Below, piece after piece: positions 1,856-41,648 of a stretch of DNA of 58,952 nt; the first letter of the stretch is position 1, and every line of letters begins with the position of its first letter. Below the pieces are notes generated by a model. The model had not been told where the DNA came from. It saw nothing but the letters and a program-made list of their open reading frames with translations, and made no database searches. A program made the translations under genes and the position numbers. Origin of the DNA: Planctomycetota bacterium (GTDB taxonomy: Bacteria; Planctomycetota; SZUA-567; JAFGNG01); assembly GCA_016927125.1 (NCBI GenBank), contig JAFGNG010000028.1, positions 1-58,952 on the forward strand, in the 5' to 3' direction.

Positions 1856-3481
1856 CTACTCAATGCCAATCTCTGGCACTTCAGGTTCCCATTCGATCTT
1901 GGCTGCTCCCAATATCGTTCCAGTCGCCTTAGCCAAATCTATCAAAGCAGCCTGATAGTTCGCTAATGCTGTATATTCCGCGCTTTGAGAATCTGCAAAT
2001 TTCGCCTGGGCTTCCAATACATCAGTGGAGGTTCTCATCCCGACTTCAAACTGCCGAAGCTCTGCTTCATACAGCCTGCCATCCAAGATCGCGCTCTGCC
2101 GGTTGGCCAGAATCTGCTGCCAGGAGGTCTCCAGGCCGTCCAAGGCGTCCAGCACTTCCTGTTCGATCACAGTTTCCCGGTCCGCACGAGAGGCCAGTTT
2201 TTGCCTGCGCAAATATAAGGCCTGACGCAAATCGCTTTTCGCAGCTTTATTGCCAAAGGGGAAAAGAAGATTCAGTGAAACCCTGTGATCTTCGTAATTT
2301 TTATCATACAGCATTTCATAAGAATCGCTGCGGCTGGCGCCCAGCGCATTGACTTCATAACCATACTGCAGGCTTAAATCCGGCAAGGTGGCATTGCGCA
2401 GATGCTCGATCTCGCTGAGATTTTTAGCAATCTCCAATTCAAGCTGCAGCATCTCCATCCGGTTGTCAATTGCATACGTCACCAGTTTTTGACTATTGAA
2501 CACATTATGTAAGGGATCCGCATCCGTCTTGGGAAGCAGCGCAGTTGCTCCTTCTATTGGCAGACCCGGCTTGTTCAAAATATATTTTAGGGTCCGTTGG
2601 CTGATGCGAAGATCATTTTCGGCAGCGATAATATTCGAAAGTTGCCCGGCAAGGCCGGCTTGGGCTCGCAAGAGATCCACCTGGGGATTTTGACCTGCAT
2701 CGACAAACCGCTTCGCCCGCTCTAATTGAGCTTGAGCCAGATCATATTGCTGCTTGCGAACCTCCAGGATCTTCCTCTTCTTATAAAGATCCCAATAGGC
2801 TTGATCGGCAGCAGCAATGGTATTGATTATCCCCAGTTTGGTAGCGGCATTGATGCTCTGCTGATCATACTTCGCGACCCGGATACTATACATGAATTCC
2901 CGCCTGCCAGCCCCCTTTAACAAAGGCTGGCTGACCGATAAACTGAAAGGTGTTGTATAAGACGAAGGGGAGGCAACGCCGGTAATGCTCGATTTTTGCT
3001 TAATGTCATCCAGGTTAAAGCTTACCGAACCACCTGTTCGCAAAGGTACCGACACCCCCATATTCATCGAGGTCCCCTCCCCTTTAGTTTCGGCAGAGGA
3101 TAAGCTTGGCGTATCGGTTCGGCTGTGGGTGATCCCGGAGGTAAAGACGACTTCGTACTTGCGGGCTTCTGTTGACTTGACATTTTCCGCTGCAATTGTC
3201 GGAGCCAGCAAACTAACCTTCAATCCCAGGTTGTTCTTCAACGTAATTGCCCGCACCTCTTCCAGGGTCAAAGCAAGTTCAGCAGGGGCTGCGGCCGGTT
3301 CGCCCTCTTCCGGCTTTTTTTCTACCTGCAAATCTTCAAGATTAAATGTCTCGATCTGTGTCAGCTTTTCCTCCGGCACTTCAAAGGAGCGGAATCTGTC
3401 GCTTTCCAGAAGCTTGATGCATCCACATAAAGGCAATACTATCAATCCAACCAACAGTAATTTTTCCAAAGGTTTATTCAT
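1856..3481 (-). CDS. TolC-family outer membrane efflux lipoprotein
   Basis: 541 aa with a lipobox (VLPLCGC). Long, duplicated coiled alpha-helical OEP-type sequence. Overlaps the stop of the upstream permease gene, so it is in the same operon. Confidence 0.85.
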   Translation of the reverse strand: MNKPLEKLLLVGLIVLPLCGCIKLLESDRFRSFEVPEEKLTQIETFNLEDLQVEKKPEEGEPAAAPAELALTLEEVRAITLKNNLGLKVSLLAPTIAAENVKSTEARKYEVVFTSGITHSRTDTPSLSSAETKGEGTSMNMGVSVPLRTGGSVSFNLDDIKQKSSITGVASPSSYTTPFSLSVSQPLLKGAGRREFMYSIRVAKYDQQSINAATKLGIINTIAAADQAYWDLYKKRKILEVRKQQYDLAQAQLERAKRFVDAGQNPQVDLLRAQAGLAGQLSNIIAAENDLRISQRTLKYILNKPGLPIEGATALLPKTDADPLHNVFNSQKLVTYAIDNRMEMLQLELEIAKNLSEIEHLRNATLPDLSLQYGYEVNALGASRSDSYEMLYDKNYEDHRVSLNLLFPFGNKAAKSDLRQALYLRRQKLASRADRETVIEQEVLDALDGLETSWQQILANRQSAILDGRLYEAELRQFEVGMRTSTDVLEAQAKFADSQSAEYTALANYQAALIDLAKATGTILGAAKIEWEPEVPEIGIE

Positions 3482-4742
3482 GTCTTAAGGCCTCGATAGG
3501 ATCAAGTTTGGATGCTTTAATTGCAGGGAACATCCCGAAGAAAATACCCACCCCGGCCGAGAATCCAAACGACATTAAAATTGCCCAACCCGGGATATAT
3601 GCCTGGTCTAATAAGTCAGCATTGGGGATCAGTTGGATTGCCTGGATGATTACATACCCGCCGCCAACTCCCAAGACTCCGCCCACACAACATAACACCA
3701 CCGCTTCGATTAAAAACTGCGTCAAGATGGCTGAGCCCTTTGCTCCTACTGCTTTCCGCAAACCAATCTCTCGGGTTCTCTCAGTAACCGACACCAGCAT
3801 AATATTCATAATCCCGACGCCACCAACCAGCAAGGAGATGCCGACAATCCCGCTTGCCACTGCGGTAATATATGCCGCTAATTCATTAAAACTCTTAAGG
3901 TGTCCTTCGACTGTCGTTACAAAGAAGGAATTTGGATCGCCAGGTTGCAGTCTTCGAGTTTGCCGCAGAAAAAAAGTAATTTCAGCTTTAGCTTCTTCTG
4001 AAATTTCAGGTGACTTGCTCGCTGCAATCACACGGAAAAATTGCTCATGGGCTTTATAACGAGTCATAAATGGGATAATTACTTCAAAGTTCTCTCCCCG
4101 GCCAGTATTGAAAATTCCAGTTGAGGGATTTTCTTTTATGAGCCCCACAATACGATAATTATTATTGTTAACGGTTATGAATTCTCCAATACAGTTTTTG
4201 TTGAGATGCAGTTTATCTCTAAGCAAGGGATCAATCAGGCACACCCGGCGGCCCTGGGTTTCGTCGATTAGCGAAAAGGGCCTTCCCATCAGGATTTCTC
4301 GCGAATTGATATCTATCCACACAGCATCGACAGCATAAATGGTAGCGCTTTCGATAGCATTATCTCCACTGCGTATTGGGGTATTAAACCTCGACTCGCG
4401 GGTTAAGTGTTTAACCGAAGGGCAATGCTCAAGCAGGTCTTCAAAATGTTCAGGCTTGAATCTAATAATATCCCATGAAGCATGCTTTAAAGGGCCGGTG
4501 TTAGGCTTGGTTGGGCTTATATAAATATTACAAATCCCGAAAGTTTCAAAATCACTAACCACCTTGGTCTTCAAACCGGTCAAAGCGGCAATCACCGCAA
4601 TAACGGAGGCAATGCCGATAACGATGCCTACGGTTGTCAATAACGATCGTACCTTATTAGCCCAGATTTGGCTCATCGCCAGGTTCACACTCTGAAAGAT
4701 TAGCCTGATGATACTAATCGGCATCATTAATAAAAATTTCAC
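3474..4742 (-). CDS. ABC transporter permease, MacB/FtsX family with a periplasmic core domain
   Basis: 422 aa: N-terminal TM helix, a ~230-aa periplasmic domain, then three C-terminal TM helices (the FtsX-type motif ERTREIGLRKAVGA). Overlaps the ATPase gene by 4 nt. Confidence 0.85.
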   Translation of the reverse strand: MKFLLMMPISIIRLIFQSVNLAMSQIWANKVRSLLTTVGIVIGIASVIAVIAALTGLKTKVVSDFETFGICNIYISPTKPNTGPLKHASWDIIRFKPEHFEDLLEHCPSVKHLTRESRFNTPIRSGDNAIESATIYAVDAVWIDINSREILMGRPFSLIDETQGRRVCLIDPLLRDKLHLNKNCIGEFITVNNNNYRIVGLIKENPSTGIFNTGRGENFEVIIPFMTRYKAHEQFFRVIAASKSPEISEEAKAEITFFLRQTRRLQPGDPNSFFVTTVEGHLKSFNELAAYITAVASGIVGISLLVGGVGIMNIMLVSVTERTREIGLRKAVGAKGSAILTQFLIEAVVLCCVGGVLGVGGGYVIIQAIQLIPNADLLDQAYIPGWAILMSFGFSAGVGIFFGMFPAIKASKLDPIEALRHE

Positions 4743-5476
4743 AGCCGCTGCCCTCCAAGGCGATATTGGTAGGCGTCGTCCTGCTCCACCGGCAGATCAC
4801 TGATAATTTTGCCGTCGAGCATCCGGATGATGCGCTTGGCGTGGCAAGCCACATCGGACTCATGCGTCACCATAATAATTGTCTGGCCCTGGTTATGAAG
4901 CTCGGTAAATAATGCCAGGATTCCCTTGCTGGTTTTGGAGTCGAGGTTGCCGGTAGGTTCGTCCGCCAGTAAGATATCAGGCTCATTAACCAAAGCTCGG
5001 GCGATTGCCACCCGTTGCTTTTCACCGCCTGACAACTGATTAGGCCGATGCCCGATACGATCACCCAGGCCAACCTGTTCCAAGGCTTTTTTTGCTTTCT
5101 TATGGCGCATAAACCAGCCATTGCGGGCATAGATTAATGGCAGCTCGACATTTTTTAAGGCATTCAGCCGGGGTAGTAATTCAAAAGACTGGAAAACGAA
5201 ACCAATCTTCTCGTTACGGGCATGGGCCAGGGCGGAATTGCTCATCTTGGTGGTATCCTTACCGTCGAGCTCATATGTCCCGCTGGTAGCGCGATCCAAG
5301 CAACCTAACAGATTCATCATGGTGCTCTTGCCTGAGCCGCTATGCCCCATCACCGCGACATATTCGTTCTCGCCGATTTCAGTACTAACCCCGTCCAGGG
5401 CATGAATACTCTCGCTGCCGACCTTATAGGTCCGCTTGATATTATTAAGCTTGATTAACGTTTTGCTATTATTCAC
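4739..5476 (-). CDS. ABC transporter ATP-binding protein (MacB/LolD-type)
   Basis: Walker [13 protein letters not shown] signature [15 protein letters not shown], Walker [14 protein letters not shown]-loop VTHE. Confidence 0.9.
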
Positions 5477-6863
5477 TTTTTACTTCCTGATCGACTTCTT
5501 CATCATCATTTTCTTCATTTCTATCTTGGTGCTTTTCTTCTTCCTTCTTTTCTTCGGTTTCATCGATAATCTTCTGGTCAGGTTTAATATTGCCAAGCAC
5601 TTTATAAGGCCCAACCACGACAAGATCACCCTCACTGAGACCTGACTTAATTATAATGTGGGTCATATCGCTTTCCCCGATTGTTACCGGCGTAGCAACT
5701 GCCTTGCCGTCAATCATACGATAAACAACCAAAGCATCGGTTTTATTCAAATCAACGTTGGGATTGTCCTGACGAATTTCCAGCGGCAGGTCGTCAACCT
5801 TCATGGAGACCACCGCTTGCGTGGGAATCTTAAGTACATTCTCATGCTTGCAGGTTTCGATATCAACATCGGCAGTCAAACCGGAAAATAACTGGTGCTC
5901 ATCATCAGCGGCAATGATAATCTCAGTCTTGTAGTAGTTTGTCCCTGAAGATGAACGATCTTGCGTAAGGGCAATTTTATCAACCACCCCTTCAAACTCA
6001 TGGCCCCAAAAGGCCTGCACCCTGATCTTTGCCTTCTGTTTCTCTGCCACCTTGCCAATATCCGACTCATCCACCTGCGCCACCAGCAGCATCTGGGAGA
6101 GATCCGCCACCTGCATAATAATTGTCCCGGCATTGTTCATAGTCCCGGTCATAACCATCTCGCCCACTTCCGCATTGATGCGAGTCACAATCCCGTCCAT
6201 GGGTGAAGTAATGGTTGCATAACTCAATGATTCCTTGGCCTGCTCAATTCGCTCTTTCGATGCCTGAAGATTATGTTCCATTACCACCAAACCAAGCTCT
6301 GCTGCCTTCAAACCTTGCTTGGCCGCTTGGTTTTGGCCCTGCTGTTCCTCAAGACGGCAGACAATCTGGTCAAAAGTCGCCTGGCTGATATCCTTGGATT
6401 CTAATAGTTGTTTTTGCCGTTCAAAATCTAACTGCGCTTGCCTGAGAGTTGCTTCATTTGCTTGTAAACTGGCCTTTTGCCTTTCAATATTAGCCTTATC
6501 AACTTCTATTTGCGCCTTTTGTGCTTCATAGCTTGCCTGCGCTGATCGCAAACCGCTTTCCAAATCTTTTGAATCCAGCTTGATCAGCAAATCGCCCTTT
6601 TTGACCTCTTGGCCTTCTTCAAAAGGCAATTCAACTATGCGGGCCGCTACCTTGGCGCTGATCTCAACCTTGCTCTTGGGTTCAATCTGTCCCGGCGCAG
6701 TAATAATTTCAACCAATTCCCCCAGCTTGACAGCTTCCACCCGCACAGGGGTAGGCTTTTCATCCTTCGGATCATTATTGCTCAGCATCCCCTGCACTAC
6801 AAAGGTCCCTACAAGGGTTAAGATTATTACTATCAAAATTGTAGTCTTAAAGTATTTACGCAT
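5469..6863 (-). CDS. Periplasmic adaptor (HlyD/MacA membrane-fusion family) with an acidic C-terminal tail
   Basis: 464 aa: N-terminal TM helix, lipoyl-like and long coiled-coil hairpin segments, beta-barrel region, then a Glu/Asp/Lys-rich tail. RBS AGGTG lies before the ATG. First gene of the minus-strand operon 6863 to 1856. Confidence 0.85.
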   Translation of the reverse strand: MRKYFKTTILIVIILTLVGTFVVQGMLSNNDPKDEKPTPVRVEAVKLGELVEIITAPGQIEPKSKVEISAKVAARIVELPFEEGQEVKKGDLLIKLDSKDLESGLRSAQASYEAQKAQIEVDKANIERQKASLQANEATLRQAQLDFERQKQLLESKDISQATFDQIVCRLEEQQGQNQAAKQGLKAAELGLVVMEHNLQASKERIEQAKESLSYATITSPMDGIVTRINAEVGEMVMTGTMNNAGTIIMQVADLSQMLLVAQVDESDIGKVAEKQKAKIRVQAFWGHEFEGVVDKIALTQDRSSSGTNYYKTEIIIAADDEHQLFSGLTADVDIETCKHENVLKIPTQAVVSMKVDDLPLEIRQDNPNVDLNKTDALVVYRMIDGKAVATPVTIGESDMTHIIIKSGLSEGDLVVVGPYKVLGNIKPDQKIIDETEEKKEEEKHQDRNEENDDEEVDQEVKSE

Positions 6864-7200: not shown

Positions 7201-7265
7201 GTGATATATGAAAAAGTTTCCTGCCCTGTGAAGCCTGAAGATTCCTGCGTGCATAACCTAAATTT

Positions 7266-7299
7266 GATAAAGCGCCCACTCCCCCTTGGGCGCTTTATC
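7266..7299 (-). terminator. Perfect 13-bp-stem hairpin downstream of the sigma-fusion gene
   Basis: GATAAAGCGCCCA (7266-7278), an 8-nt loop, then TGGGCGCTTTATC (7287-7299), 70 nt after the stop at 7369. No strong T-tract follows, so terminator function is uncertain. Confidence 0.45.
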
Positions 7300-7368
7300 A
7301 GGAGGCACAATTTTACCTCAACTTAGCAAAGCTGTTAAACGCTCATTGCGCTAATAACCGTATGCTCT

Positions 7369-10300
7369 TTAATCAAACACAAGCCGTCCCAACCGCTTGT
7401 GTTTATGCCAGTCAGCATAAGGCTGATAAGACCAACTGCTTGGCGCTTTATTATCATTGCGGAAAATACGGAAGAAATTAATCCGCCAGCTCTGCAATTG
7501 GTCGGCTTGAGTAAACTCAGCCAGAGGCAACTTGACTTCCGCAGTCCAGTAACCGTCACAGGGTTTGCATATTGCTTGCCAGTCTAACTGGAACGTGTAA
7601 TCTCGTTCTTCTTGCCGCACGTTCTGGTCAAACCGAATGCCAGCGGTATTAAAAGCTAATTGGTAATAGCTACCTTCTGATTCATCTGGTTGGATCATCA
7701 TCGCCAGGATATCGTCTCGTGAATCAAAAAATTCTGGTTCTCCATCTGCAATTGCCTGCAGTTGAGTCGGATCCGGATCGCTGCAGGCAAAAGCTAAATA
7801 GAGGAAAGTATCGTCGTAGAGGGCCTTGACCCCAGTTTCGATAGTGGAGCGTTGCGCCTTGGTTACCTGCCAGCACCTCACTTGGAAGGGCGATTCCTGC
7901 CAGGCTTCTTCATCCAACGCTCCGTCAAGCTCAAGCGGTTCTGTCACTCGTTTGGCAGTTATTGAGGCAAATTCTCCTGCTTTTTGGGTTGCTTCAACCT
8001 TATTCCATTCTAGCGGCAAAGAAAACTCTAACTCAAGGCTTGGTCGCACGTAGGTTGCTACATCGGCAAAGTCCGCCGGCACTTCTACGGGACCGTCATC
8101 ACCGTTATTAGCGTCGGGGATCAAGCGATCGACTATACCGGGATTATCATTATGCACCAGCGCTGACATTAACGCTTCACCTTCCTGGGGGTTCCAGAGA
8201 TTGTACCAGAGAATATTGCCGTTATTGAGAAGGGCCCAGCCACCATTGGGGTGGTTACTCGGCTTGTCTATTAAAATCACGGTATTGGGCTGGAGTTTTT
8301 CCGGCACCTGGGTAATTGGCAGGTATAGGTAATCGCTGTGGAATCCTTCGCCCCCCTCCGCTTGCAGCTGTGTCTTGGTAGGTGAAATAAAAGACTGTGG
8401 ATTGGATAATTCCTGCACCGTGGCCGCCAATTCTTCCAGTGAAGAGGGCATGCGCTGGTGTTGTTCGCGGAAAGAGGATATCCCGCGGTGGATTTGCTTG
8501 AGCTTGTTTTGCTGTTGATTCCGCAATGCTTTTTGCTGCGCCTCCCATTGGTTAATTGACTTAACAACAGTTTGGGTTAACGCCACTGCGGTTTCAGAAA
8601 TAACTTCCGTGGGTAGCTTGACCGCAATCTGTAATTTGCCAGCCTCAACTCCGATGCAACCCGTAACCGGCTGGGTGGAATCCGGCAATTCGCCAAGAGC
8701 CTGGGAGACCATCAGCACCTGGTCGTCCAGCCAACTAAGCGGCAAATCAGCCGCTAATTTCTGCAACGCCGCCGGCTGCTGGCCAAGGAGTTTCATCGTA
8801 TCCAAGAGGTAAATTGCGCCAAAGGCAAGCTGTTTCGTATCAGTAGCTTGTAGCGCTGCTCGGAACTCCTCACGCTGGCCTACTCCTGGGTTCGCTTGCT
8901 CAACCTGGTTAATAAGTTTCGCCAAGCTTGCCACCGCGTCGTCTTCACTCAGCCCGAATCCCTGCTGGTTTATCTCAATCACAAGTCGATCAGTAAACGT
9001 AGTAAGTTGCTGATGTTGCCAGTATTGCTGGAATATTGCCATCTCTGGCGCGGGTGGCACTTCGGCAAATTTAAATGCAAATTTGCTGTAAGGCATACCC
9101 GCAACTTCACCCGCCGCATCATCGAAGGTAGACTCCAGGCTGAAGGGCATGGCAAGCTCCTGGGTTATGTCATTAAACGTATCTGTGAAGTTTGCCAGTT
9201 CCTCCGGTAGAATTTCCTGAAAAGCCTTTGCATCTTTAACTTCGGTAAGATTGGCATTTTTGAATCCTGCGCCAGTAGAGAGTGGCACCACAGCCATACA
9301 GGCCTCTCCCTCTAACAACGATAGCAATTGTGAATGCTCCTCCGGCTCCTCGATTTCAGCTAAGAATATCTGGGGATTATGCGAACCGAAAAATTCTTCC
9401 GCCTTTGCCCGTATCACCTGAATAACCTCCATTACTTCAGGTTTAATGTTGCTGCTAACTGCAGCCACACTGTCTGCTGGCAAGAGCTGCAACAGCGGAT
9501 AGGTTGGCATTTCATTCTCATAAGCTTGCACCAACCGCTCCAACTCGCTCCCCGCTTTGGGCAGGAATTCACCCGTCAATACCAGCTTTTCTTCATTCAT
9601 GCTTACATCGTAACGGATCCCGTTTAGCATCTCGAAAACTTGTCGATTCATAGCCAGCCAGTTCGGCAGCCATTTTCTTATAAACTCTGGATTATTCCCC
9701 TCCGCCATTTGCTCTGGTAGCTCCGCCAAAAAAGTGTCGAGCACCTCGACATTCACCTGCATCAACTTTTCTACATCTATAGTTATTCGCAAGGTAGTGT
9801 CTTCTGGCAATTTCAAGGATTTCCATTTCTTAAGGGTGTCTGCTAAAGCAGGCAATGACTGCCGTTCACCCACGGCGATACAGTTATTTGGCAAACCGGT
9901 TAGGAGTCCAAGCTGTATCGGGGCTGGGTCAATAAAATCAAGATGATAAAAATCAGCCGAAGTGTCGGGGTTCTCAAAATCAACCTTCGGTGAAGTTACT
10001 TGCCAACCATACTGTGCCGCGACCGATAAGGATTCCTCCAGATTACGGATCGGCAGAATCACAGCAAACCTTATATTTGCTGGATCTTCAGGAGCGGGAT
10101 TAAAGAACACCACTTGGATGCCCTGGCTCTGATCAATAAGGCCGGGAGGGGCATTGCCAGGTTCAAAAATCGGCGCTACTTTTTGCAGCCATTGTTCGGT
10201 CATGCCAGGATACATTAATGCCGCTGCCGGTGTGCCTTTGGTGACTGCAATTAAAAACTCTTCCGTATCCTTGATGGAGGTTTCCAATGGCCCGGTATTG

Positions 10301-11169
10301 ATATGCATAATCATATCCCCGGGGAAAGAAACCTCTTCTACAGCAGTGATCGCTTCCTTAACCTCTACTGCTGGAGCTTCCGACATTGCTTCTACCACTA
10401 TTGGCGCGGCTGCACCAGCCACTGCTACTGCCGCGACTGTGACTATTGCCGCGGTTTTCATCTTTGTCCAAAAGATCATTTTTGCTATTCCTTTCGCTAT
10501 GGCAGTACTGGTCGCGGTCAGCACCACCCCCTTAGCCGTCACCAACACGGTAGATACGGTCGCGGCGGCAAGTTCCGCCGGGGCTGCCATGACTGCCTTC
10601 GCCGGCAACAAGGTCGCCAGCATCGCCACCGGCACGGCAATGCCCTTCCGGCGCAGAACTCCGCGCAATCTTTCAATCGCAGACGCGACCCGTTTCTTGG
10701 CAGCGTCTTCCGAGACAGATAGCTCTGCAGCTATCTCTCGCATAGATTTATTTTGTAAATACCGCAAGATTACGGCCTTGCGATCTCTTGCCCGAAGTGA
10801 GACCAGGGCGTGATCAAGGAGGGGAGTGATAGAATCCCAAACACTTTCATCATCTTGATTATTTACTGCGGCCTTCGCCGCGTTGGTTTCATGATACATT
10901 CGTCGCCTCCGGCTTCTAAGTGCATGCCCAGCAGCATAGCGGGTGGTATTAAGCAGCCACCCGGGCAGGAATACACTTTCTTTAATACTCTCTGCCTTCT
11001 GGGCAAGAAACAGAAAGACCCCTTGAGTTACATCTTCAGCAAGATGCGGATCCTGCACTTGTCGCAAAGCGGCCGAATAAACCAGATCAAGGTGGCGATT
11101 GACTAATTCTTCAAAAGCACTCTCGCACCGGCTTTCAGCATATTTTTGCAGCAATTGGGCATCACTCAT
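7369..11169 (-). CDS. ECF-type sigma-70 factor fused to a TM segment and a ~1000-aa extracytoplasmic domain ending in a CBM9-like module
   Basis: 1266 aa. Residues ~1-185 show sigma region 2 (DLVYSAALRQV...EDVTQGVF) and region 4 HTH (MREIAAELSVSEDAAKKRVASAIERLR). An Ala/Val/Gly-rich TM segment (AAIVTVAAVAVAGAAAPIVV) lies near aa 240-258. The last ~195 aa align with the C-terminus of the 47602-52266 protein. Strong RBS GAGGAGGAG. Confidence 0.8.
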   Translation of the reverse strand: MSDAQLLQKYAESRCESAFEELVNRHLDLVYSAALRQVQDPHLAEDVTQGVFLFLAQKAESIKESVFLPGWLLNTTRYAAGHALRSRRRRMYHETNAAKAAVNNQDDESVWDSITPLLDHALVSLRARDRKAVILRYLQNKSMREIAAELSVSEDAAKKRVASAIERLRGVLRRKGIAVPVAMLATLLPAKAVMAAPAELAAATVSTVLVTAKGVVLTATSTAIAKGIAKMIFWTKMKTAAIVTVAAVAVAGAAAPIVVEAMSEAPAVEVKEAITAVEEVSFPGDMIMHINTGPLETSIKDTEEFLIAVTKGTPAAALMYPGMTEQWLQKVAPIFEPGNAPPGLIDQSQGIQVVFFNPAPEDPANIRFAVILPIRNLEESLSVAAQYGWQVTSPKVDFENPDTSADFYHLDFIDPAPIQLGLLTGLPNNCIAVGERQSLPALADTLKKWKSLKLPEDTTLRITIDVEKLMQVNVEVLDTFLAELPEQMAEGNNPEFIRKWLPNWLAMNRQVFEMLNGIRYDVSMNEEKLVLTGEFLPKAGSELERLVQAYENEMPTYPLLQLLPADSVAAVSSNIKPEVMEVIQVIRAKAEEFFGSHNPQIFLAEIEEPEEHSQLLSLLEGEACMAVVPLSTGAGFKNANLTEVKDAKAFQEILPEELANFTDTFNDITQELAMPFSLESTFDDAAGEVAGMPYSKFAFKFAEVPPAPEMAIFQQYWQHQQLTTFTDRLVIEINQQGFGLSEDDAVASLAKLINQVEQANPGVGQREEFRAALQATDTKQLAFGAIYLLDTMKLLGQQPAALQKLAADLPLSWLDDQVLMVSQALGELPDSTQPVTGCIGVEAGKLQIAVKLPTEVISETAVALTQTVVKSINQWEAQQKALRNQQQNKLKQIHRGISSFREQHQRMPSSLEELAATVQELSNPQSFISPTKTQLQAEGGEGFHSDYLYLPITQVPEKLQPNTVILIDKPSNHPNGGWALLNNGNILWYNLWNPQEGEALMSALVHNDNPGIVDRLIPDANNGDDGPVEVPADFADVATYVRPSLELEFSLPLEWNKVEATQKAGEFASITAKRVTEPLELDGALDEEAWQESPFQVRCWQVTKAQRSTIETGVKALYDDTFLYLAFACSDPDPTQLQAIADGEPEFFDSRDDILAMMIQPDESEGSYYQLAFNTAGIRFDQNVRQEERDYTFQLDWQAICKPCDGYWTAEVKLPLAEFTQADQLQSWRINFFRIFRNDNKAPSSWSYQPYADWHKHKRLGRLVFD

Positions 11170-11440
11170 TTAATTCTCCTCCTCTATACTCTATTCTTAA
11201 ATGCCCGGCAGAAGCACAAAGGTGAAATTATTTTGTTATTTTTTTTATTTTCGCAAACCGCTCGCGTTTTACAGCTTTAGAGTAGCTTAAAATTATTAAT
11301 ATGAGAAGGAAAATCAGCATAATAACTCTACCTGGTTTCGCTACAAGTGGTTATTAGATAAGCAGGTAAAGCAATTAACTTCAGTGAGTGAGAAAACATA
11401 CGGAAAATGTACGTGATTTGTATCTGAGCAAAGCCACGGC

Positions 11441-11688: not shown

Positions 11689-11706
11689 ATACTGACCGGT
11701 CAGTAT
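11689..11706. promoter_or_regulatory. Perfect 18-bp palindrome, probable TetR operator
   Basis: ATACTGACCGGTCAGTAT is its own reverse complement. It sits between the -10 element and the RBS of the TetR gene. Confidence 0.6.
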
Positions 11707-11725
11707 GCGTTTAAGGATTAGAAAA

Positions 11726-12340
11726 ATGAAAACCCAGAATAAGCGTGACCAGATTATCCAGGCGATTGAACCCTTACTCAGCACCCGCAGGTTCCATGAG
11801 ATCACCCTGGATGAGGTGGCCCAGGCTGCAAAAATTGGCAAGGGAACAATTTACCGCTATTTTAAAGATAAAGATGATCTTTTCTTTCATATTGCGACTG
11901 CGGGTTTTGATCAACTCTGCGAATTGCTGGAGGAAAATATCCCCAAGGATTCGCACTTCCAGGAAAAATTAATGGTAGTCTGTACCCAGATAAGTGATTT
12001 TTTCAAGGACCGCAGATCTGTTATCCGGGTAATCCAGGAGCATGAAGGTAGGATGCGATGCTTTCATGGCGAAATGAAGCAGCAATGGGTTGAAAAGCGC
12101 AAGAAGCTGGTGGCCACCGTTGCCGGGATCCTGGAACAGGGCGTTTCTGAAGGAGTTATCAAGCAAGAGCTCCCTACTGAGACCTTAGCGGCACTTCTCC
12201 TGGGGATGATGCGGGCACGGGCGCGAGAATTATCCGAAGACAGGAGTAATAATATCAAGTTATCGGAGATTGTGGATGTATTCCTGTTTGGAGTAGGAAA
12301 TCACGAGCTTTTGCCGAAGACTGTCGGCGGGAAGAAGTAA
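11726..12340 (+). CDS. TetR/AcrR family transcriptional repressor
   Basis: N-terminal HTH (ITLDEVAQAAKIGKGTIYRYFKDKDDLF). I prefer the ATG at 11726 (AAGGA 8 nt upstream) over the track start 11705, which lies inside the operator palindrome. Confidence 0.85.
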   Translation: MKTQNKRDQIIQAIEPLLSTRRFHEITLDEVAQAAKIGKGTIYRYFKDKDDLFFHIATAGFDQLCELLEENIPKDSHFQEKLMVVCTQISDFFKDRRSVIRVIQEHEGRMRCFHGEMKQQWVEKRKKLVATVAGILEQGVSEGVIKQELPTETLAALLLGMMRARARELSEDRSNNIKLSEIVDVFLFGVGNHELLPKTVGGKK

Positions 12341-12393
12341 AAAAGAGATTATCCCTTAAATTGTCGATAAAAAACCTTGGAGGAATGAATTCC

Positions 12394-13620
12394 ATGAGAA
12401 AGATTATTGTTGGTCTTGTACTTGCCTTAATACTCCTAGCTATTGGTTGGCGCATCTTCGAGAATTCAATCACGCAGAATGAAGGCGGCCAAAATTTTCG
12501 CGGCGGCGGAGCTGTAGCTGTCGAGACTGAAACCGTGCGTAAAGTCAATATTGAAGATATCCGCTTGTTTACCGGCACCCTGCTGCCGCAATCCCGATTT
12601 GTAGTAGCTCCCAAGATTGGCGGCCAGCTTGAAGAACTTACGGTACAAATAGGCGATACGGTCAAATCAGGACAACTGATTGCGAAAATCAATGATGATG
12701 AGTACCAGCAGAACGTTCAGCAGTCCAAGGCCGAACTTGAAGTTACCATGGCGGAAGTGGAGCAGGCCGAAGCCCTGTTGAATAATAGCAAACGCGAATA
12801 CGAACGGGTTATCGCCCTCCGAGAGAAAAAAATCACCTCTGAATCCGAATTGGATACAGCTGAATCTGAATATAAAACCCAGTTGGCCAAAAGCAAGGTG
12901 GCACTCTCCCAAAAAGCCCAGAAAGAAGCGGCCCTTAAAGCCGCTGAAGTTCGCCTGTCCTATACGGAGATCTATGCCTCTTGGGATTCCGGCAGTGATC
13001 TCCGCTTTATTGGCGAGAGATTCGTGGATGAAGGCGAAATGCTCACTGCCAACAACCCCCTTGTCAGTATTATCGATATTGACAAGCTGATAGCGGTGAT
13101 CCACGTGATTGAGCGCGATTATCCCCATATCCAGGTAGGCCAGGACACCACGATCAGCACGGACGCTTATCCGGAAGAAACCTTTACCGGGAAAATCATC
13201 CGCATCGCTCCCCTCCTGATGACCGCTTCCCGCCAGGCGCGGGTTGAGATTGAGGTTCCCAATTCCCAGCGACTTTTAAAACCCGGAATGTTTGTGCGGG
13301 TTCAAATCCAGTTTGCCAGGCATGAAAATGCCATTACCGTGCCGCAAAACGCTATAGTACGCCGTAACGGCCAGGATGGCGTCTTCCTGGTCAATAAAGA
13401 AGCAGGGAAGGCTGAGTTTGTGCAAACCAAAATCGGGATTAATAATGGCCAGGTAGTTGAAATTCTGGAGCCTGAAATTTCCGGGGAGGTGGTGGTGCTC
13501 GGGCATCATCTCTTGGTCGATGGCTCTGCAATTCTTTTGCAAAATTCGTCTCCGGAAGCTTCTGAGGAAAAACCAGGAAAGCCTGAGCAGCCACAGAAGC
13601 AGGAAGGAAACCGGCCATGA
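12394..13620 (+). CDS. RND efflux periplasmic adaptor (membrane fusion protein)
   Basis: N-terminal TM or signal sequence, lipoyl and coiled-coil hairpin segments, beta-barrel region. Start chosen at ATG 12394 (GGAGGA 9 nt upstream). Stop overlaps the pump start (ATGA). Confidence 0.85.
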   Translation: MRKIIVGLVLALILLAIGWRIFENSITQNEGGQNFRGGGAVAVETETVRKVNIEDIRLFTGTLLPQSRFVVAPKIGGQLEELTVQIGDTVKSGQLIAKINDDEYQQNVQQSKAELEVTMAEVEQAEALLNNSKREYERVIALREKKITSESELDTAESEYKTQLAKSKVALSQKAQKEAALKAAEVRLSYTEIYASWDSGSDLRFIGERFVDEGEMLTANNPLVSIIDIDKLIAVIHVIERDYPHIQVGQDTTISTDAYPEETFTGKIIRIAPLLMTASRQARVEIEVPNSQRLLKPGMFVRVQIQFARHENAITVPQNAIVRRNGQDGVFLVNKEAGKAEFVQTKIGINNGQVVEILEPEISGEVVVLGHHLLVDGSAILLQNSSPEASEEKPGKPEQPQKQEGNRP

Positions 13621-16600
13621 AACTCGCAAGGTTTTCTGTTCAGCGCCCGGTTTTCACCACCATGGCCACAAGCATTATCCTGATCCTGGGGGGGATTTCG
13701 CTGTGGCGTCTGCCGATCGACCTGATGCCGGATATCACCTATCCCACCTTAAGCGTTTCAACCGGTTATGAGGACGCCAATCCGGAAGAAGTCGAGGAAT
13801 TGATAACCCGCCCGATTGAAGAAGCGTTGAGCGCTGTTCCCGGAGTGGAGGAAATCACTTCGACCTCGTCAGAAGGCTCCAGCAGTGTCCGGATATCATT
13901 TTCCTGGGGAACTGATTTAGATGCAGCCGCTTCCGATATCCGGGATAAAATGGATCGGGTTATTCCCCGCCTGCCTGACGATGCGGATCGTCCGCAACTT
14001 AGAAAATTTGACCTGGCAAGTTTCCCGATCTTGATCTTGGGAGTATCGAGCGATCTTGATCCGCTCCAACTCCGTAAGTTGATTGATGATCAGGTTAAAT
14101 ACCGGGTTGAGAGAATCGCCGGGGTTGCCTCCCTGGATGCCTGGGGCGGTCTGGAAAGAGAAATCCATGTTAATCTCGATATTGATAAGATCAAAGCCCT
14201 GGGGCTCTCTTTGAATCAGATCATGGATCGGATTCGCGCAGGCAATGTGGATTTCCCCGCCGGCACTATCGAAAAGGGCTATCTTGATATCCGGGTCCGC
14301 ACCCCGGGCACCTATGCCAATCTGCAAGAACTGCGCGACACCGTGATTATGATCCGCGAGGGCGTGCCGGTGCAGTTGAGCGATGTTGCCTCGGTGGAAG
14401 ACTCCTCGGTAAAAACTACCAGGATTATCCGGGTAAATGGCAAGCCAGGATTACGCCTGGCGGTCAATAAGCAGTCCGGGACCAATACTGTCGAAGTGGC
14501 CAAAGCCGTGCTGGCAGAGATGCAGAGGATCAACCGGGATATCCCCCAGATTGAAATCACCCCGATTATCGACAGCTCGGAATATATTGAAAAATCAGTC
14601 AATAACATCAGCCGCGCCGCGGTTTACGGGGGCGGGTTGGCAGTCCTGGTGCTGCTGCTGTTTTTAAGGAACCTGCGCAGCACCGCGATTATCACCGTTT
14701 CCATTCCGGTTTCGATTATCGCCACCTTCATGATGATTTACTTCGGGGGATTCACTCTCAACATCATGACCCTGGGCGGATTAGCGCTGGGAGTCGGGAT
14801 GTTGATGGACAACTCGATTGTGGTTCTGGAAAACATTACCCGCCTGCGTGACAGCGGTTATGAAAAAGAAGCCGCGGCCGTGGAAGGCTCGGAAGAAGTA
14901 ACCTCTGCTATTATCGCTGGGACCCTTACCACCGTGGCGGTTTTCCTCCCCTTGATTTTTGTGCGTGGCATGGCGGGAGTCATGTTTAAACAATTGTCAC
15001 TGGTAATTGGTTTCTCCCTGCTGTGCTCGCTGGCCGCGGCAATTTCTCTGGTTCCGATGCTGGCTTCAAAACTTATCCATCCCACTACCCTCGGCAACAG
15101 CGAGCATGAAACCTGGGGGCATAAGATCTTCCGCCTCAGCGCTAAAATTTTTATTGAAATGGAAAAAACCTATAAAGAATTGCTGCATTTTGCCATTCAT
15201 CACCGAGCCATAATAATCATTTCCGGGGTGTTGCTGTTAGCGGGATCCCTGGCGCTGATTCCTTTTATTGGCTCCGAGCTTATGCCGGTTACCGATGAGG
15301 GGGAAGTCCGGATTAATGCGGAAATGGAAGTCGGCACCCGGGTTGATTTATTGGCCGAAAAGTTTGCCGAGATTGACCGGATCGTCCGGGTAGAAACTCC
15401 CGAAGTCCTCTATACAACCAAATCTCTTGGCGGTTCCAATTGGCGCTCCTCCGGCGGCCACTCTGGTGATATGCGGATCTCGTTGGTACCCCAAAAAGAG
15501 CGCACCCGCACCAGTGAAGAAATCGCCGAAGTTTTACGGAAAAAACTCGCTAACCTCCCGGGAGTGAAGGTCAGGGTACGAGCCGGGCAAGGTTTATTCA
15601 TTATGCGGATGGCAACCAGCGGAGGTGAAAGAATCGGAATCGAAATCCGAGGCTATGACTTCGATACTGCCGATGCCCTCGCCCAGCAGGTAGCCCAGGT
15701 GGCCCAGGAAGTGGAAGGGGTTACCGATACCAGGATCAGCCGTGAATCAGGCAGCCCGGAAAGGACCGTGGTCATCGACCGCAAGAAAGCGGCGGACATG
15801 AAATTGACGGTCTCCGAAATCGCAGAGGCCTTGCGCACGGTTTTGGCCGGCACCTCAGCGGGTAACTTCCGGGAAATGGGCGATGAATACCGTATTCTGG
15901 TCAAGGTTAAAGACGCTGACAAGATGCGCCTGGAGGACATCCTGGATTTAACTATAACTAATTCCGACAATGTCCCGGTGGTCTTGCGCAATGTGATTGC
16001 CATGAAGCCCCGCAGCGGCCCGGTTACGATTCAGCGAAAGGATCAGGAACGGATCGTCAGCGTCGATGTCAATATCAGCCAACGGGACATGGGATCAATT
16101 ATTGCTGACATCCGCGAGCGGTTGCAGACCGTGACTGTCCCGGCCGGGTTCAGCATAGTCTTCGGGGGAGATTATGAAGAACAGCAGAAAGCCTTTTATG
16201 AATTGCTGATGAGTTTTATCCTAGCATTAGTCCTGGTTTACATGGTAATGGCCTGCCAGTTTGAATCCCTGCGCGATCCCTTTGTGGTGATGTTCTCCGT
16301 ACCGCTGGCAGCCATCGGGGTAATCCTGATGTTGCTCTTAACCAACACCACCTTCAATGTCCAGACCTTCATCGGCTGCATTATGCTTGGTGGCATCGTA
16401 GTTAACAATGCGATCCTGCTGGTCGACCACACCAATCTCCTGCGCCGCCGCGACAAGCTGCCGATTAATGAAGCGATTGAAGAAGCGGGACGCCGCAGAC
16501 TGCGTCCGATCTTGATGACCGCTTTTACCACCACCCTGGGATTGATGCCGCTGGCCCTGGGTGTCGGCGAAGGCGGTGAAGCCCAGGCGCCGATGGCGCG

Positions 16601-16715
16601 GGCGGTAATCGGAGGGCTCTTGAGCTCAACCTTCATAACTCTTCTCTTTGTACCGGTGGTGTATTCCTTCTTTGAAAAGCGAATGTCCCATCCCCAGGAA
16701 ACCGGCGAGCTCTAA
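13617..16715 (+). CDS. RND efflux permease (AcrB/HAE-type, 12 TM)
   Basis: 1032 aa with the typical N-terminus (RPVFTTMATSIILILGGISL..LPIDLMPDIT), two large periplasmic loops, and conserved TM4/TM10-type segments. Confidence 0.9.
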   Translation: MKLARFSVQRPVFTTMATSIILILGGISLWRLPIDLMPDITYPTLSVSTGYEDANPEEVEELITRPIEEALSAVPGVEEITSTSSEGSSSVRISFSWGTDLDAAASDIRDKMDRVIPRLPDDADRPQLRKFDLASFPILILGVSSDLDPLQLRKLIDDQVKYRVERIAGVASLDAWGGLEREIHVNLDIDKIKALGLSLNQIMDRIRAGNVDFPAGTIEKGYLDIRVRTPGTYANLQELRDTVIMIREGVPVQLSDVASVEDSSVKTTRIIRVNGKPGLRLAVNKQSGTNTVEVAKAVLAEMQRINRDIPQIEITPIIDSSEYIEKSVNNISRAAVYGGGLAVLVLLLFLRNLRSTAIITVSIPVSIIATFMMIYFGGFTLNIMTLGGLALGVGMLMDNSIVVLENITRLRDSGYEKEAAAVEGSEEVTSAIIAGTLTTVAVFLPLIFVRGMAGVMFKQLSLVIGFSLLCSLAAAISLVPMLASKLIHPTTLGNSEHETWGHKIFRLSAKIFIEMEKTYKELLHFAIHHRAIIIISGVLLLAGSLALIPFIGSELMPVTDEGEVRINAEMEVGTRVDLLAEKFAEIDRIVRVETPEVLYTTKSLGGSNWRSSGGHSGDMRISLVPQKERTRTSEEIAEVLRKKLANLPGVKVRVRAGQGLFIMRMATSGGERIGIEIRGYDFDTADALAQQVAQVAQEVEGVTDTRISRESGSPERTVVIDRKKAADMKLTVSEIAEALRTVLAGTSAGNFREMGDEYRILVKVKDADKMRLEDILDLTITNSDNVPVVLRNVIAMKPRSGPVTIQRKDQERIVSVDVNISQRDMGSIIADIRERLQTVTVPAGFSIVFGGDYEEQQKAFYELLMSFILALVLVYMVMACQFESLRDPFVVMFSVPLAAIGVILMLLLTNTTFNVQTFIGCIMLGGIVVNNAILLVDHTNLLRRRDKLPINEAIEEAGRRRLRPILMTAFTTTLGLMPLALGVGEGGEAQAPMARAVIGGLLSSTFITLLFVPVVYSFFEKRMSHPQETGEL

Positions 16716-16729
16716 AAAGGATTTAATGC

Positions 16730-18373
16730 ATGGTTAATCGCGGCAAGTTTGATCTACTCATGGGTTATCTTTTCCCGCTATGTCTTTGCCTGCTGCTGCC
16801 GGCCTGCAATTTTTCAGGCTTCGCAAATGATGAAGAGCAAGCCGACCGCTCGCGTCCGGCCGCGAAGGTAAGCACCGAACCCGAAGAGGATTCGCAGGTA
16901 TCTCTGTCTGCAGAAAATACCGGCAAGGCAACCCCGGAGATTTCAGAATCCGAACCTCTTCGGCTCACCCTGCAGGAGGCGATTCTGCAGTCACTTGATA
17001 ATAATGCCGCTTTCCAGGTTGACAGGCTGACCCCGGCCCTGCAACGGACCTATGAGACTGAGGAACGCGCCGAGTTCGATCCTGTACTTTCCGGGGAATT
17101 TTCCAAAACTCGCGCGAAGACCAGCGAAGATGTCAGAGGCCAGGCCGATGATGAGGTGGCCAGCGCAACCTCCACCGGGGGCGCTCTCTCTCTTGAAACT
17201 TTACTGCCCACCGGGACCACGCTCGGCCTTGAGGCCGGCAGGACCAATTCCCGTGAGGACGGTTTTACCAGTGATACCGATACCCAGGCAAACCAGTATG
17301 GCATCAATATTACCCAGCCCCTGCTAAGAAGCTTCGGCCCCAGGGTGAATCTTGCCAATTTGCGTAAAGCAAAGCTGGATACACGCATCTCCCAATATGA
17401 ATTGCAGGGCCTGGCGGAAGCGCTGGTAGCGGAGGTCGAAAAAACCTACTGGGATTACGTGCTGGCCGAGAGGCAAATAGAAATTTATACCGATTCGCTC
17501 GAGATTGCCGAGCAATATATCAATGAAATTAAAGAACGGATTAACATCGGCAAGCTGGCTGAAACTGAACTTGCGGCTGCGGAAGCGGAAGTGGCCAGAC
17601 GGCGTGAAGACTTGATCAACGCCAATAGTAACTTTGCCAACGTCCGCCTGCTCTTTATCCGGCTTTTAAACCCTGGCGGCAGTAACCGCTGGACGCGGGA
17701 GCTCGAGATCCTTGATAAACCTCTGGCCGCTCCCCTGGAACTTGGGGATGTAGAAACCCGGGTTCAAAAAGCCTTGGCTTTGCGTCCGGAAATTAACGAG
17801 GCCCTTCTCAGAATTGAGAAAGGCGACCTGGAAATCATTCGAACCCGCAACGGTCTTCTTCCTAAGCTCGATCTCTTTATCCGTCTCGGTAATACCTCTT
17901 ACTCGGAAACCTTCTCCTCCAAAAATAATCTCGACGGCAAGGAGTATGCATATGAAATCGGGCTGCAGTTTGAATACGCCCTCGGCAACCGTGCCAAGAA
18001 AGCGGAACACGAGCGCGCCCTGTTGAGCGTTGAGCAGGCCAAAGAAATGTTGAATAATCTCCAAGGGCTTGTGCAGGTCGATGTGCGTTCGGCTTATATC
18101 GAGGTCGAGCGTTTCCGGGAACAAACCGAAGCCACTAAGGCGACGAGAAAACTTCGGGAAGAGGCTCTGCGCGTGGAAAACGAAAAATTTCGGGTAGGAA
18201 AGTCCACTGCCTTCCTCGTAGCCCAGGCGAGTAGGGATCTCGTCGCCAGCAGGATTAGCGAGGTTGAGGCCGTGGTCAATCATCTCAAGGCGCAGGTGGA
18301 TTTCTTCCGCCTGGAAAGTTCCCTCTTAGAGCGCCGGGGGATTGTAATTCCTGAGATAGAAACGGCCAAATAA
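16730..18373 (+). CDS. TolC-family outer membrane factor lipoprotein
   Basis: 547 aa, lipobox LLPAC, duplicated OEP-type helical repeats. Last gene of the TetR-RND operon. Confidence 0.85.
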   Translation: MVNRGKFDLLMGYLFPLCLCLLLPACNFSGFANDEEQADRSRPAAKVSTEPEEDSQVSLSAENTGKATPEISESEPLRLTLQEAILQSLDNNAAFQVDRLTPALQRTYETEERAEFDPVLSGEFSKTRAKTSEDVRGQADDEVASATSTGGALSLETLLPTGTTLGLEAGRTNSREDGFTSDTDTQANQYGINITQPLLRSFGPRVNLANLRKAKLDTRISQYELQGLAEALVAEVEKTYWDYVLAERQIEIYTDSLEIAEQYINEIKERINIGKLAETELAAAEAEVARRREDLINANSNFANVRLLFIRLLNPGGSNRWTRELEILDKPLAAPLELGDVETRVQKALALRPEINEALLRIEKGDLEIIRTRNGLLPKLDLFIRLGNTSYSETFSSKNNLDGKEYAYEIGLQFEYALGNRAKKAEHERALLSVEQAKEMLNNLQGLVQVDVRSAYIEVERFREQTEATKATRKLREEALRVENEKFRVGKSTAFLVAQASRDLVASRISEVEAVVNHLKAQVDFFRLESSLLERRGIVIPEIETAK

Positions 18374-26261: not shown

Positions 26262-26574
26262 AACTCCATTCCTCATTCTAAAGACTTTATAACCGAAGAA
26301 TAATTTCGAAATTAATCTATGGTGATAGTTATAGATAGGTAAGCTACGTGATGGGCAGGTAATAACACCGGATCTGCTATAATTATACTGATATTTTCCA
26401 GAGGCATTTACCCGCCGGCTGTTAAGTAATAATTCCAGCTACCTATTATAGCAATAAGTTAAAAAATATCCTCCGCTGAGCACATATTGGCTTTATTATA
26501 AAATGTAGTATAAATCAGTATTTGTCAATTAGCTTGTTATAATATAACCTGATAAGTGTATTATATCCTCTAAT

Positions 26575-31163: not shown

Positions 31164-31281
31164 GGTTATTCTCCATCTGCCGGACAATAACTAATTTTAA
31201 TAAGATAGAAGTTCTCAATAAATAAAGGAACGGTGTCTGCCAAATATACCTAAGCAGCGATTCCAATCAAGTTGTAATGAC

Positions 31282-31817: not shown

Positions 31818-31912
31818 CAGTCAGATAAAAGGCCGTTTTATCAGTAGTTGTTACCTTGGTATTTTCACCCCCAAATCTTAACTTTTGGGATTAAGCAAGC
31901 AAGGGATTGATT

Positions 31913-34714: not shown

Positions 34715-34740
34715 GAATACACTTTACTTAGGAGATGATT

Positions 34741-35604: not shown

Positions 35605-35625
35605 GAGACTTAAGGTATAGCAAAT

Positions 35626-39514: not shown

Positions 39515-39595
39515 TAAGCATTTGGATTGATTCCTATTATCCCCTCGCCTGAACATTCTCGCCCACCTCAACCTAAGGGGAAAAGGAGATCTATC

Positions 39596-41629: not shown

Positions 41630-41648
41630 TTATAACTCCAAGGAGAAG

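Follow-up and report, generated by a model that had tools for sequence, protein, structure and literature searches.

A membrane-anchored ECF sigma factor from a Planctomycetota bacterium belongs to a large family of sigma factor fusions with unrelated ectodomains

We analyzed contig JAFGNG010000028.1 (assembly GCA_016927125.1) from a Planctomycetota bacterium, which is 58,952 nucleotides (nt) long and is referred to here as the window. The minus strand of the window carries a gene that encodes, in one reading frame, an extracytoplasmic function (ECF) sigma factor, a conserved linker, a single predicted transmembrane (TM) helix and a large ectodomain. A first-pass annotation, made from the sequence alone, had treated this protein as a rarity. 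We found it to belong to a family that has hundreds of loci and in which the same N-terminal part is joined to ectodomains that are mostly unrelated to each other. The features of the gene and its product, in amino acids (aa) and in window positions, are:

7369-11169, minus strand: the sigma-linker-TM-ectodomain fusion gene, one frame of 1266 aa plus the stop codon.
11194-11241, minus strand: promoter-like element, with an A-rich block, TTTCAC (11227-11222), a 15-nt spacer and GGGCAT (11206-11201).
11176-11182, minus strand: Shine-Dalgarno sequence GGAGGAG, 6 nt 5' of the ATG, found by sequence inspection.
aa 1-175: the ECF sigma part, from Pfam regions 2 and 4, TIGR02937 and an AlphaFold model.
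10900-11106, minus strand: sigma region 2 (aa 22-90), Pfam Sigma70_r2 at 8.3e-9, above the gathering score.
10663-10818, minus strand: sigma region 4 (aa 118-169), Sigma70_r4_2 at 1.4e-8 (aa 118-168, above the gathering score) and Sigma70_r4 at 8.9e-8.
10456-10644, minus strand: conserved, family-specific cytoplasmic linker (aa 176-238), from an alignment of homologues.
10387-10455, minus strand: predicted single TM helix (about aa 239-261), TAAIVTVAAVAVAGAAAPIVVEA, from Kyte-Doolittle hydropathy and flanking charges.
8515-10323, minus strand: ectodomain module A (aa 283-885), with full-length homology to stand-alone secreted proteins.
7996-8514, minus strand: ectodomain module B (aa 886-1058), with a Gln-rich and probably helical first part and a small second part without detectable relatives.
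7372-7995, minus strand: CBM9-like domain (aa 1059-1266), Pfam CBM9_1 (PF06452) at 7e-5, with homologues.
7265-7300, minus strand: terminator-like hairpin after the stop codon of the fusion gene, with a 14-pair stem including 7 G-C pairs, about 70 nt past the stop.

The 1266-codon frame described in the first pass was confirmed as uninterrupted from the ATG at 11169-11167 to its stop, and it is framed by the Shine-Dalgarno sequence and the terminator-like hairpin. By arithmetic, a chance run of 1266 sense codons has a probability of (61/64)^1266, or about 1e-26. The next gene on the same strand begins 505 nt downstream, and the fusion gene looks monocistronic. An identical protein is present in NCBI, where it is labelled 'MAG: sigma-70 family RNA polymerase sigma factor [Planctomycetes bacterium]'.

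Profile searches and the structural model confirmed aa 1-175 as an ECF (group 4) sigma factor. The sigma-70 regions 2 and 4 recognized in the first pass both scored above the Pfam gathering scores, and the NCBIfam sigma70-ECF model TIGR02937 agreed, matching aa 17-169 with 77.8 bits against a cut-off of 42.9 (7e-22). Pfam gave no match to sigma region 3 or to region 1/1.1 in the fusion protein. An AlphaFold2 model of aa 1-270, based on a 34-sequence alignment, had a predicted local distance difference test score (pLDDT) above 95 over both sigma domains. When the sigma model was compared with the PDB by Foldseek, the top matches were all ECF sigma factors (E 3e-6 to 5e-5), namely a Mycobacterium tuberculosis sigma chain (9m9e_F), SigW, sigmaE, AlgU, SigK and CnrH; sigma region 2 matched that of sigmaE with target-normalised TM-scores (template modelling scores) of 0.85-0.92. 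Two narrower assignments were rejected: the Rhodopirellula/Verrucomicrobium sigma family TIGR02989 (44.6 bits against a cut-off of 124.55) and Pfam Sigma70_ECF, PF07638 (15.6 bits against 21.1).

The strongest 19-residue Kyte-Doolittle window lies at aa 241-259 with a score of 2.42, one residue from the segment at aa 240-258 that had been noticed in the first pass. It is preceded by K236 and K238 in the juxtamembrane sequence WTKMK and followed by 7 acidic residues among the 38 residues C-terminal to it, and in the AlphaFold model one long helix (aa 222-262) covers the TM segment. Two further Ala-rich stretches, at aa 176-196 and aa 199-219, are less hydrophobic (scores of at most 1.86) and contain Lys and Pro, and we read them as cytoplasmic. 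A single-pass topology with the N-terminus inside and the C-terminus outside fits the predictions because of the hydropathy, the positive-inside flanking charges and the modelled helix at aa 222-262. The remainder of the protein, put at about 1000 aa in the first pass, measures 1004 residues. Altogether, Pfam, hydropathy and AlphaFold support the architecture proposed in the first pass; the protein is a cytoplasmic ECF sigma factor joined covalently, via a conserved linker, to one TM helix and a large extracytoplasmic mosaic.

In the N-terminal alignment of homologues conservation does not end at sigma region 4 but runs on through the linker into the TM helix. The linker consists of the motif RRG..L..AaLA..L...AV.AAPa.LA, a low-complexity Ala/Ser/Thr/Gly stretch and a juxtamembrane W.K.K. 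In the window protein the post-sigma4 motif reads RKGIAVPVAMLATLLPAKAVMAAPAELA, and G176, P197 and L200 are kept in at least 90% of 34 homologues. AlphaFold placed helices at aa 181-195 and 198-211, with pLDDT below 50 at aa 204-222. The first-pass annotation had seen no HxxxCxxC anti-sigma motif, and a regular-expression search of the fusion protein likewise returned none. A recognizable anti-sigma domain in the linker was rejected, as the PDB, Pfam and HxxxCxxC searches gave no anti-sigma match. A profile of 24 linker sequences recovered no anti-sigma chain among PDB sequences (the sole hit was unrelated, E 0.11), and Pfam scans of the 24 linkers recovered no anti-sigma family, only scattered, unrelated single-member hits of which the best had E 0.0039. 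The linker may be an autoinhibitory element, a handle for a protease or adaptor, or a mere spacer.

A search with the whole protein returned 37 other proteins of 700-1300 aa that aligned only to the first 11-25% of the query. Their ectodomains differ and include leucine-rich repeats (LRR), CarboxypepD_reg repeats and thioredoxin-like, PDZ, HEAT, TolB-like, TonB_C and WD40 domains. P0002, the closest relative, shares 51% identity with the query over 260 aa and has a nearly identical TM helix, but splits off right after the residues VVEAM into an LRR domain.

We then scanned GTDB, with one genome per species and a 5-sequence alignment as query, and found at least 541 loci in which a sigma factor, a linker of about 60 aa and a TM helix are encoded in one open reading frame (ORF) together with unrelated ectodomains. 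The matches at the best 80 of these loci extend across query residues 1 to about 260. These 80 belong mostly to Verrucomicrobiota (Limisphaerales, Pedosphaera, Verrucomicrobiia, Luteolibacter and Haloferula sp. BvORR071), while the Planctomycetota among them are from Phycisphaerales and Tepidisphaeraceae. Haloferula sp. BvORR071 (locus L068) is an isolate genome. Complete family ORFs at the 80 loci encode 241-1051 aa with a median near 500. For 62 of 77 relatives the best hydrophobic window (19-residue Kyte-Doolittle score of at least 1.8) is found in the region after sigma4, in most cases starting around aa 240. The TM helices of the family consist of 24% Ala, 19% Val, 10% Gly and 10% Thr, and 79 of 80 contain Gly or Pro.

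To compare the ectodomains, 100 members with a TM helix and an ectodomain of at least 80 aa were aligned in 4825 pairs. All N-terminal modules were mutually homologous, whereas the ectodomains matched in 425 pairs only, leaving 91% unrelated. Even where the N-terminal modules were at least 70% identical, the ectodomain was shared by 22 of 56 pairs and was unrelated in 61%. The ectodomain of the window protein matched none of the 99 others. Family genes are often found in tandem, with three to four copies within 8 kb (for example L007, L024, L041, L059 and L071). Minimal members exist as well: L035 (280 aa) consists of sigma, linker and TM helix with almost no ectodomain, and L041 includes a 241-aa member that stops before any TM helix. 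The unit made up of promoter, sigma factor, linker and TM helix behaves as a duplicating cassette joined to many different secreted proteins.

A promoter-like motif belonging to this cassette was looked for by strand-specific k-mer enrichment upstream of 73 family genes from the GTDB loci and of the window gene. The k-mers TTTGTCC and AAAATAA were enriched. TTGTC was present 30-60 nt before the predicted ATG in 35 of the 73 loci, and at -36 to -39 in 23 of those. The consensus of the motif is aAAAta.tTTGTC[CT]-N15-G[GT][GC]C[AG]T-TTATAGGTGA-ATG. A palindromic version (TTGTCC...GGACAT) was not adopted, as only a subset of the sites fit it. Twenty-three sites located before family genes of other genomes served to build a 48-nt position weight matrix (PWM). 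When both strands of the best 80 loci were scanned, 105 hits scored at least 14; 54 of them sit in front of the focal family gene at a distance of 20-80 nt, and of the remaining 51 about 44 (counted from translations) precede further family genes, mostly flanking paralogues. Tandem family copies each carry their own TTGTCC-N15-GGGCAT about 37 nt before the ATG, and they would therefore have very short 5' untranslated regions (UTRs).

In the window the PWM gave a single outlier, which lies immediately 5' of the fusion gene and scored 16.1. Among non-overlapping sites on both strands the runner-up scored 5.0, and the maxima of ten shuffled sequences were 3.3-6.5. The 5' UTR of the window gene is about 21 nt longer than that of the family and contains the strong Shine-Dalgarno sequence. 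The motif is probably a family-specific, autoregulated promoter. No second site was found by the PWM on either strand of the window, and therefore no target beyond the gene itself can be proposed from the window; control by this sigma factor of the efflux operons flanking the gene, or of a gene for a 1554-aa protein described below, is unsupported. In three loci the motif also precedes genes for prepilin-type proteins (FTLIELLVVIAII..., PulG/DUF1559-like), at L030 around 7791 (plus strand), L053 around 7580 (plus strand) and L014 around 4869 (minus strand). These genes are candidate non-sigma targets of the family. No prepilin-type gene of that kind was found in the window.

The ectodomain of the window protein is a mosaic of three parts. 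We searched aa 263-1266 exhaustively against 1.84 billion cluster representatives and listed the 150 best matches. Module A aligns over its full length with stand-alone proteins that are about 590-650 aa long, among them P0051, P0053, P0058 and P0067, with 22-29% identity and E-values from 1e-36 to 1e-18. Most of the homologues whose sequences were read carry an N-terminal signal peptide, with the alignment beginning just after it, and close with a Pro-rich tail whose last residue is Phe. In the fusion protein the homology begins about 20 residues past the TM helix, and the sigma-linker-TM cassette therefore occupies the place of the signal peptide of the homologues. No Pfam or NCBIfam family covers module A. 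Its AlphaFold model (pLDDT 77, predicted TM-score 0.77) consists of repeated beta-beta-alpha units. The sole near-significant fold match in the PDB was the Treponema pallidum lipoprotein TP0453 (E 2e-3, target-normalised TM-score around 0.4), and we regard this modelled likeness as a weak lead. Around stand-alone homologues of module A (L001, 4702-7902, and L003, 496-3823), the gene for P0051 lies directly downstream of an NfeD/Peptidase_S49 gene and that for P0067 near a Band_7/stomatin gene; the context of the P0053 gene differs from both.

Module B is about 170 aa long. It had no match in Pfam or NCBIfam, and none of the 150 best hits listed from the representative search covers it. It contains the motif 'NLKQIG', which we took to be pseudopilin/DUF1559-like. 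This assignment was rejected, as BLASTP against two prepilin-type proteins of related loci gave E 0.7-0.9 and Pfam and NCBIfam gave nothing.

The last part of the ectodomain resembles CBM9. As an isolated fragment it scored 23.2 bits against a CBM9_1 gathering score of 23.4, and within the whole protein it scored 20.4 bits. The homologues P0041, P0044 and P0050 (42-45% identity) are above the threshold with 23.6-37.6 bits. The E-values of its relatives go down to 1e-47, and most of these relatives are the C-terminal parts of proteins about 1500 aa long. The closest relative found lies in the window itself, at the C-terminus of the 1554-aa ORF at 47602-52266 (minus strand), and is 50% identical over 216 aa (E 6e-65). 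The domain is probably glycan-binding. The polysaccharide signal suggested in the first pass thereby gains some support, since the last 200 aa are CBM9-like, fall just short of the threshold and have close homologues that pass it. The 1554-aa ORF has no Pfam family and belongs to a conserved family of about 1500-aa proteins (P0040-P0049); its divergent neighbour at 52546-54687 (plus strand) encodes a DUF4838 protein. Searches of the ectodomain and the 1554-aa protein against PDB sequences gave zero hits. The combination of parts in the ectodomain is unique so far: at full length only the query itself was returned, both from 5.8 billion word-indexed sequences and from the exhaustive search of the 1.84 billion representatives.

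The rest of the window is dense in efflux systems, located at 1856-6863 (minus strand), 11705-18373 (plus strand), 31907-37101 (plus strand) and 38114-45617 (plus strand). They include a MacAB-type ABC pump with HlyD and OEP, a TetR regulator with an RND (resistance-nodulation-division) pump and OEP divergent from the sigma fusion gene, an MMPL/sterol-sensing-domain transporter with LolA-like and DUF1302 genes, and a heavy-metal-type RND system with HMBD and DUF3347 domains in its HlyD protein. A 157-aa ORF at 37364-37837 (minus strand) fits only the last 150 positions of the AcrB/ACR_tran profile and is probably a gene remnant. The genes at 18558-26276 and 26859-31187 (both minus strand) encode proteins of 2572 and 1442 aa with FG-GAP repeats and cadherin domains, the second also with PKD.

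With moderate confidence, we propose that the protein is a single-pass tethered sigma factor with an interchangeable ectodomain, which is released by proteolysis and transcribed from an autoregulated promoter. The tether, possibly with the linker folded back on the sigma domains, would hold the sigma factor off RNA polymerase. If the ectodomain bound a ligand or was damaged, for example, this periplasmic event would permit a site-1 cut or trimming, and a site-2 metalloprotease would then cut inside the Ala/Gly-rich TM helix. The freed sigma factor with its linker stub, possibly trimmed further, would bind core polymerase and transcribe promoters of the TTGTCC-N15-GGGCAT type, including its own. 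Regulated intramembrane proteolysis is the best-supported mechanism of release that we can infer, because of the precedent of IutY (described below) and the composition of the TM helix, which is rich in small residues. An Ala/Gly/Thr-rich TM helix has the helix-destabilising content that substrates of site-2 proteases (S2P) need, and in pro-sigmaK the sigma factor is itself what an S2P-type protease cleaves. Proteolytic activation of sigmaK is described in PMC6242693.

Several points weigh against this account, in which cleavage is a prediction from analogy and from the composition of the TM helix. No M50/S2P or other protease gene adjoins the fusion gene or the two other family loci inspected. 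TM helices rich in small residues are also ordinary signal anchors. Autoinhibition is speculative because the linker resembles no anti-sigma domain in the searches made. The promoter-like site of the window is weak, scoring 16.1 where most of the 23 training sites score 23-52, and its -35-like block is degenerate, reading TTTCAC and not TTGTCC. We infer from co-occurrence only that the sigma factor itself reads the motif; co-occurrence is the usual argument by which promoters are assigned to ECF groups. As for the signal, the CBM9_1 family is broad, which leaves a carbohydrate as no more than a candidate ligand.

A bolder version of the proposal, which we hold only tentatively and consider less probable than the account above, takes the promoter-sigma-linker-TM unit as a self-contained, duplicating and autoregulated 'sensor-maker' cassette with a novel intramolecular inhibitory linker, AV.AAP..LA. 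By replacing the signal peptide of a secreted protein, the cassette would make of it a one-component sigma switch that spans the membrane and is freed by intramembrane proteolysis, and prepilin-type (DUF1559-like) genes would be among the verrucomicrobial targets.

The fusions could instead be an evolutionary by-product: the cassette landed before the gene of a secreted protein, whose product is carried along as an ectodomain with no role in sensing. In that case the activity of the sigma factor would depend mainly on its transcription, or else on processing that is constitutive, such as a signal-peptidase-like cut after the TM helix and S2P clearance of the remaining stub. The shuffling of ectodomains even among close paralogues, the members with almost no ectodomain (L035 with 280 aa, L041 with 241 aa) and the patchwork of pieces with relatives elsewhere in the window protein are all in line with this explanation, and the fortuitous insertion of duplicated sigma2-sigma4 regions has been proposed for unrelated planctomycetal C-terminal extensions (PMC7671368). 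However, the 1004-aa frame of the ectodomain is intact and module A is predicted to fold confidently by AlphaFold, the linker and TM helix are clearly conserved, and the retention of hundreds of fusions in two phyla argues, as we read it, for selection on the attachment of an ectodomain. We therefore consider a by-product unlikely.

We judge it somewhat more doubtful still that the sigma factor is active while tethered, in the manner of ToxR, CadC and TcpP. Here the 60-aa flexible linker would allow RNA polymerase to be recruited to membrane-near promoters, and the ectodomain would modulate activity by conformation or oligomerisation, with no proteolysis involved. The low-complexity stretch at aa 204-222, with its low pLDDT and its position between sigma factor and TM helix, could be such a flexible tether. 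It also fits this explanation that no protease partner is conserved nearby: no conserved partner gene, anti-sigma or protease, was found beside the family members in the window or in L004-L006. On the other hand, a sigma factor must dock deep in the holoenzyme and cycle off again, and we know of no sigma factor shown to act while tethered. IutY, the one experimentally studied membrane-anchored sigma hybrid, is freed by proteolysis (PMC8999054).

That the single ORF is an assembly or sequencing artefact joining a sigma gene to a downstream gene, which might be suspected of a contig from a metagenome-assembled genome, is excluded for practical purposes by sequence comparison, as sigma factor, linker and TM helix also follow each other in one frame in 34 database proteins and in GTDB loci that were assembled independently (62 of the 77 inspected, with the isolate Haloferula sp. 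BvORR071, L068, among them). The 99 other members compared likewise have the homologous linker and TM helix in a single frame, which speaks against the frameshift at 10400-10650 considered in the first pass, and P0002, whose TM helix is nearly identical, diverges only after VVEAM.

With its membrane sensor built in, an ECF sigma factor would be a transmembrane transcription switch of the simplest conceivable kind. Such fusions occur by the dozen in PVC bacteria and, to our knowledge, none from these phyla has been experimentally tested. The window protein itself adds no new principle. The family offers experimental handles in the fixed cassette boundary just past the TM helix, the linker motif, the candidate cognate promoter and a cultivated host, Haloferula sp. 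BvORR071 (L068). If proteolytic release and autoregulation hold true, the cassette would be attractive as a modular part for synthetic biology.

One-polypeptide ECF sigma factors with TM-containing extensions have been catalogued as ECF48, ECF52, ECF53, ECF57 (the former ECF01-Gob), ECF263 and IutY. The family described here is a very large one of the PVC clade (Planctomycetes, Verrucomicrobia), already catalogued and uncharacterised. Another group with a C-terminal regulatory extension in one polypeptide is ECF41, whose promoter, TGTCACA-n16-CGTC, shares the TGTC...CGT spacing with the family motif (Wecke et al., 2012, PMC3426412). The extension of ECF41 is, in contrast, soluble, cytoplasmic, about 100 aa long and without a TM helix (PMC3426412). 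No ECF41-type family was among the NCBIfam hits of the window protein, and the sigma cores are not close.

A second parallel is RsgI of Clostridium thermocellum, which works with SigI, in that the CBM9-like domain of the window protein is 50% identical to that of the 1554-aa protein on the same contig; modules related to those of RsgI are also carried by enzymes under SigI control. RsgI is described as a membrane protein whose external carbohydrate-binding modules sense polysaccharide and which signals by proteolysis (PMC10328401). RsgI differs in being a separate anti-sigma protein and not a sigma fusion. No regulatory link from the fusion protein to the 1554-aa gene was found, and the PWM detected no family motif upstream of that gene.

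SCO4117 of Streptomyces coelicolor (ECF52) is closer in layout. It consists of a sigma factor, a TM helix and an extracytoplasmic carbohydrate-binding domain, and proteolytic activation has been proposed (PMC8999054). The same source gives ECF52, ECF48 and ECF53 a common layout of sigma factor, one or more TM helices and an extracytoplasmic region with a carbohydrate-binding domain, which resembles that of the window protein. These groups come from actinobacteria, however, and a zinc-finger (ZAS-like) anti-sigma domain separates their sigma factor from the TM helix, whereas the window protein has no HxxxCxxC or other anti-sigma signature.

The mechanistic model that we adopted is that of IutY from Pseudomonas putida (ECF243), a sigma/anti-sigma hybrid that shares with the window protein a single polypeptide with an N-terminal ECF sigma factor, one TM helix and a periplasmic domain. 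Prc and RseP release IutY, and truncation makes it constitutively active (PMC8999054). It differs in having a FecR-type anti-sigma part and a TonB-dependent transducer; the window protein has no detectable anti-sigma domain, its ectodomain is unrelated, and no TonB-dependent receptor was found near the fusion gene. Because the linker has no anti-sigma similarity and no zinc motif, the protein cannot be filed as a sigma/anti-sigma hybrid of either the IutY or the ECF52 type.

The group of the fusion protein is probably a neighbour of ECF57 or unclassified. ECF57 carries WD40 repeats, whereas the window protein and its close relatives lack them; Pfam scans of the window protein and of its pieces gave no WD40 or beta-propeller match. 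ECF57 also has two conserved Cys residues, one each in sigma2 and sigma4 (PMC8999054), while the only Cys within aa 1-262 of the window protein is C15 and the alignment of its close relatives contains no conserved Cys column. Among the more distant hits, P0033-P0037 share the layout of linker and TM helix and P0035-P0037 carry WD40 repeats; the sequences of P0033-P0035, which were read, have a Cys in sigma2, and P0033 and P0035 have one in sigma4 as well.

At the level of the family there is a resemblance to the planctomycetal ECF sigma factors of Pinto et al. (2020, PMC7671368), which share their phylum with the window protein. That study describes diverse C-terminal extensions, which its authors explain by sigma cores that were duplicated and picked up neighbouring sequence. 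Like the present family, those proteins combine an ECF core with long, unrelated extensions of variable size, and the duplication of the core is decoupled from the extension (PMC7671368). They are planctomycetal, whereas the best 80 of our at least 541 loci are mostly from Verrucomicrobiota. The swapping of ectodomains reproduces the pattern of Pinto et al. on a different, mostly verrucomicrobial sample, whether or not the two families are the same. The family-level conservation of the linker, the fixed position of the TM helix and cassette boundary, and the shared promoter-like motif leave the family classified as a known, uncharacterised kind, and set beside the accessible parts of the published accounts these three features may be new.

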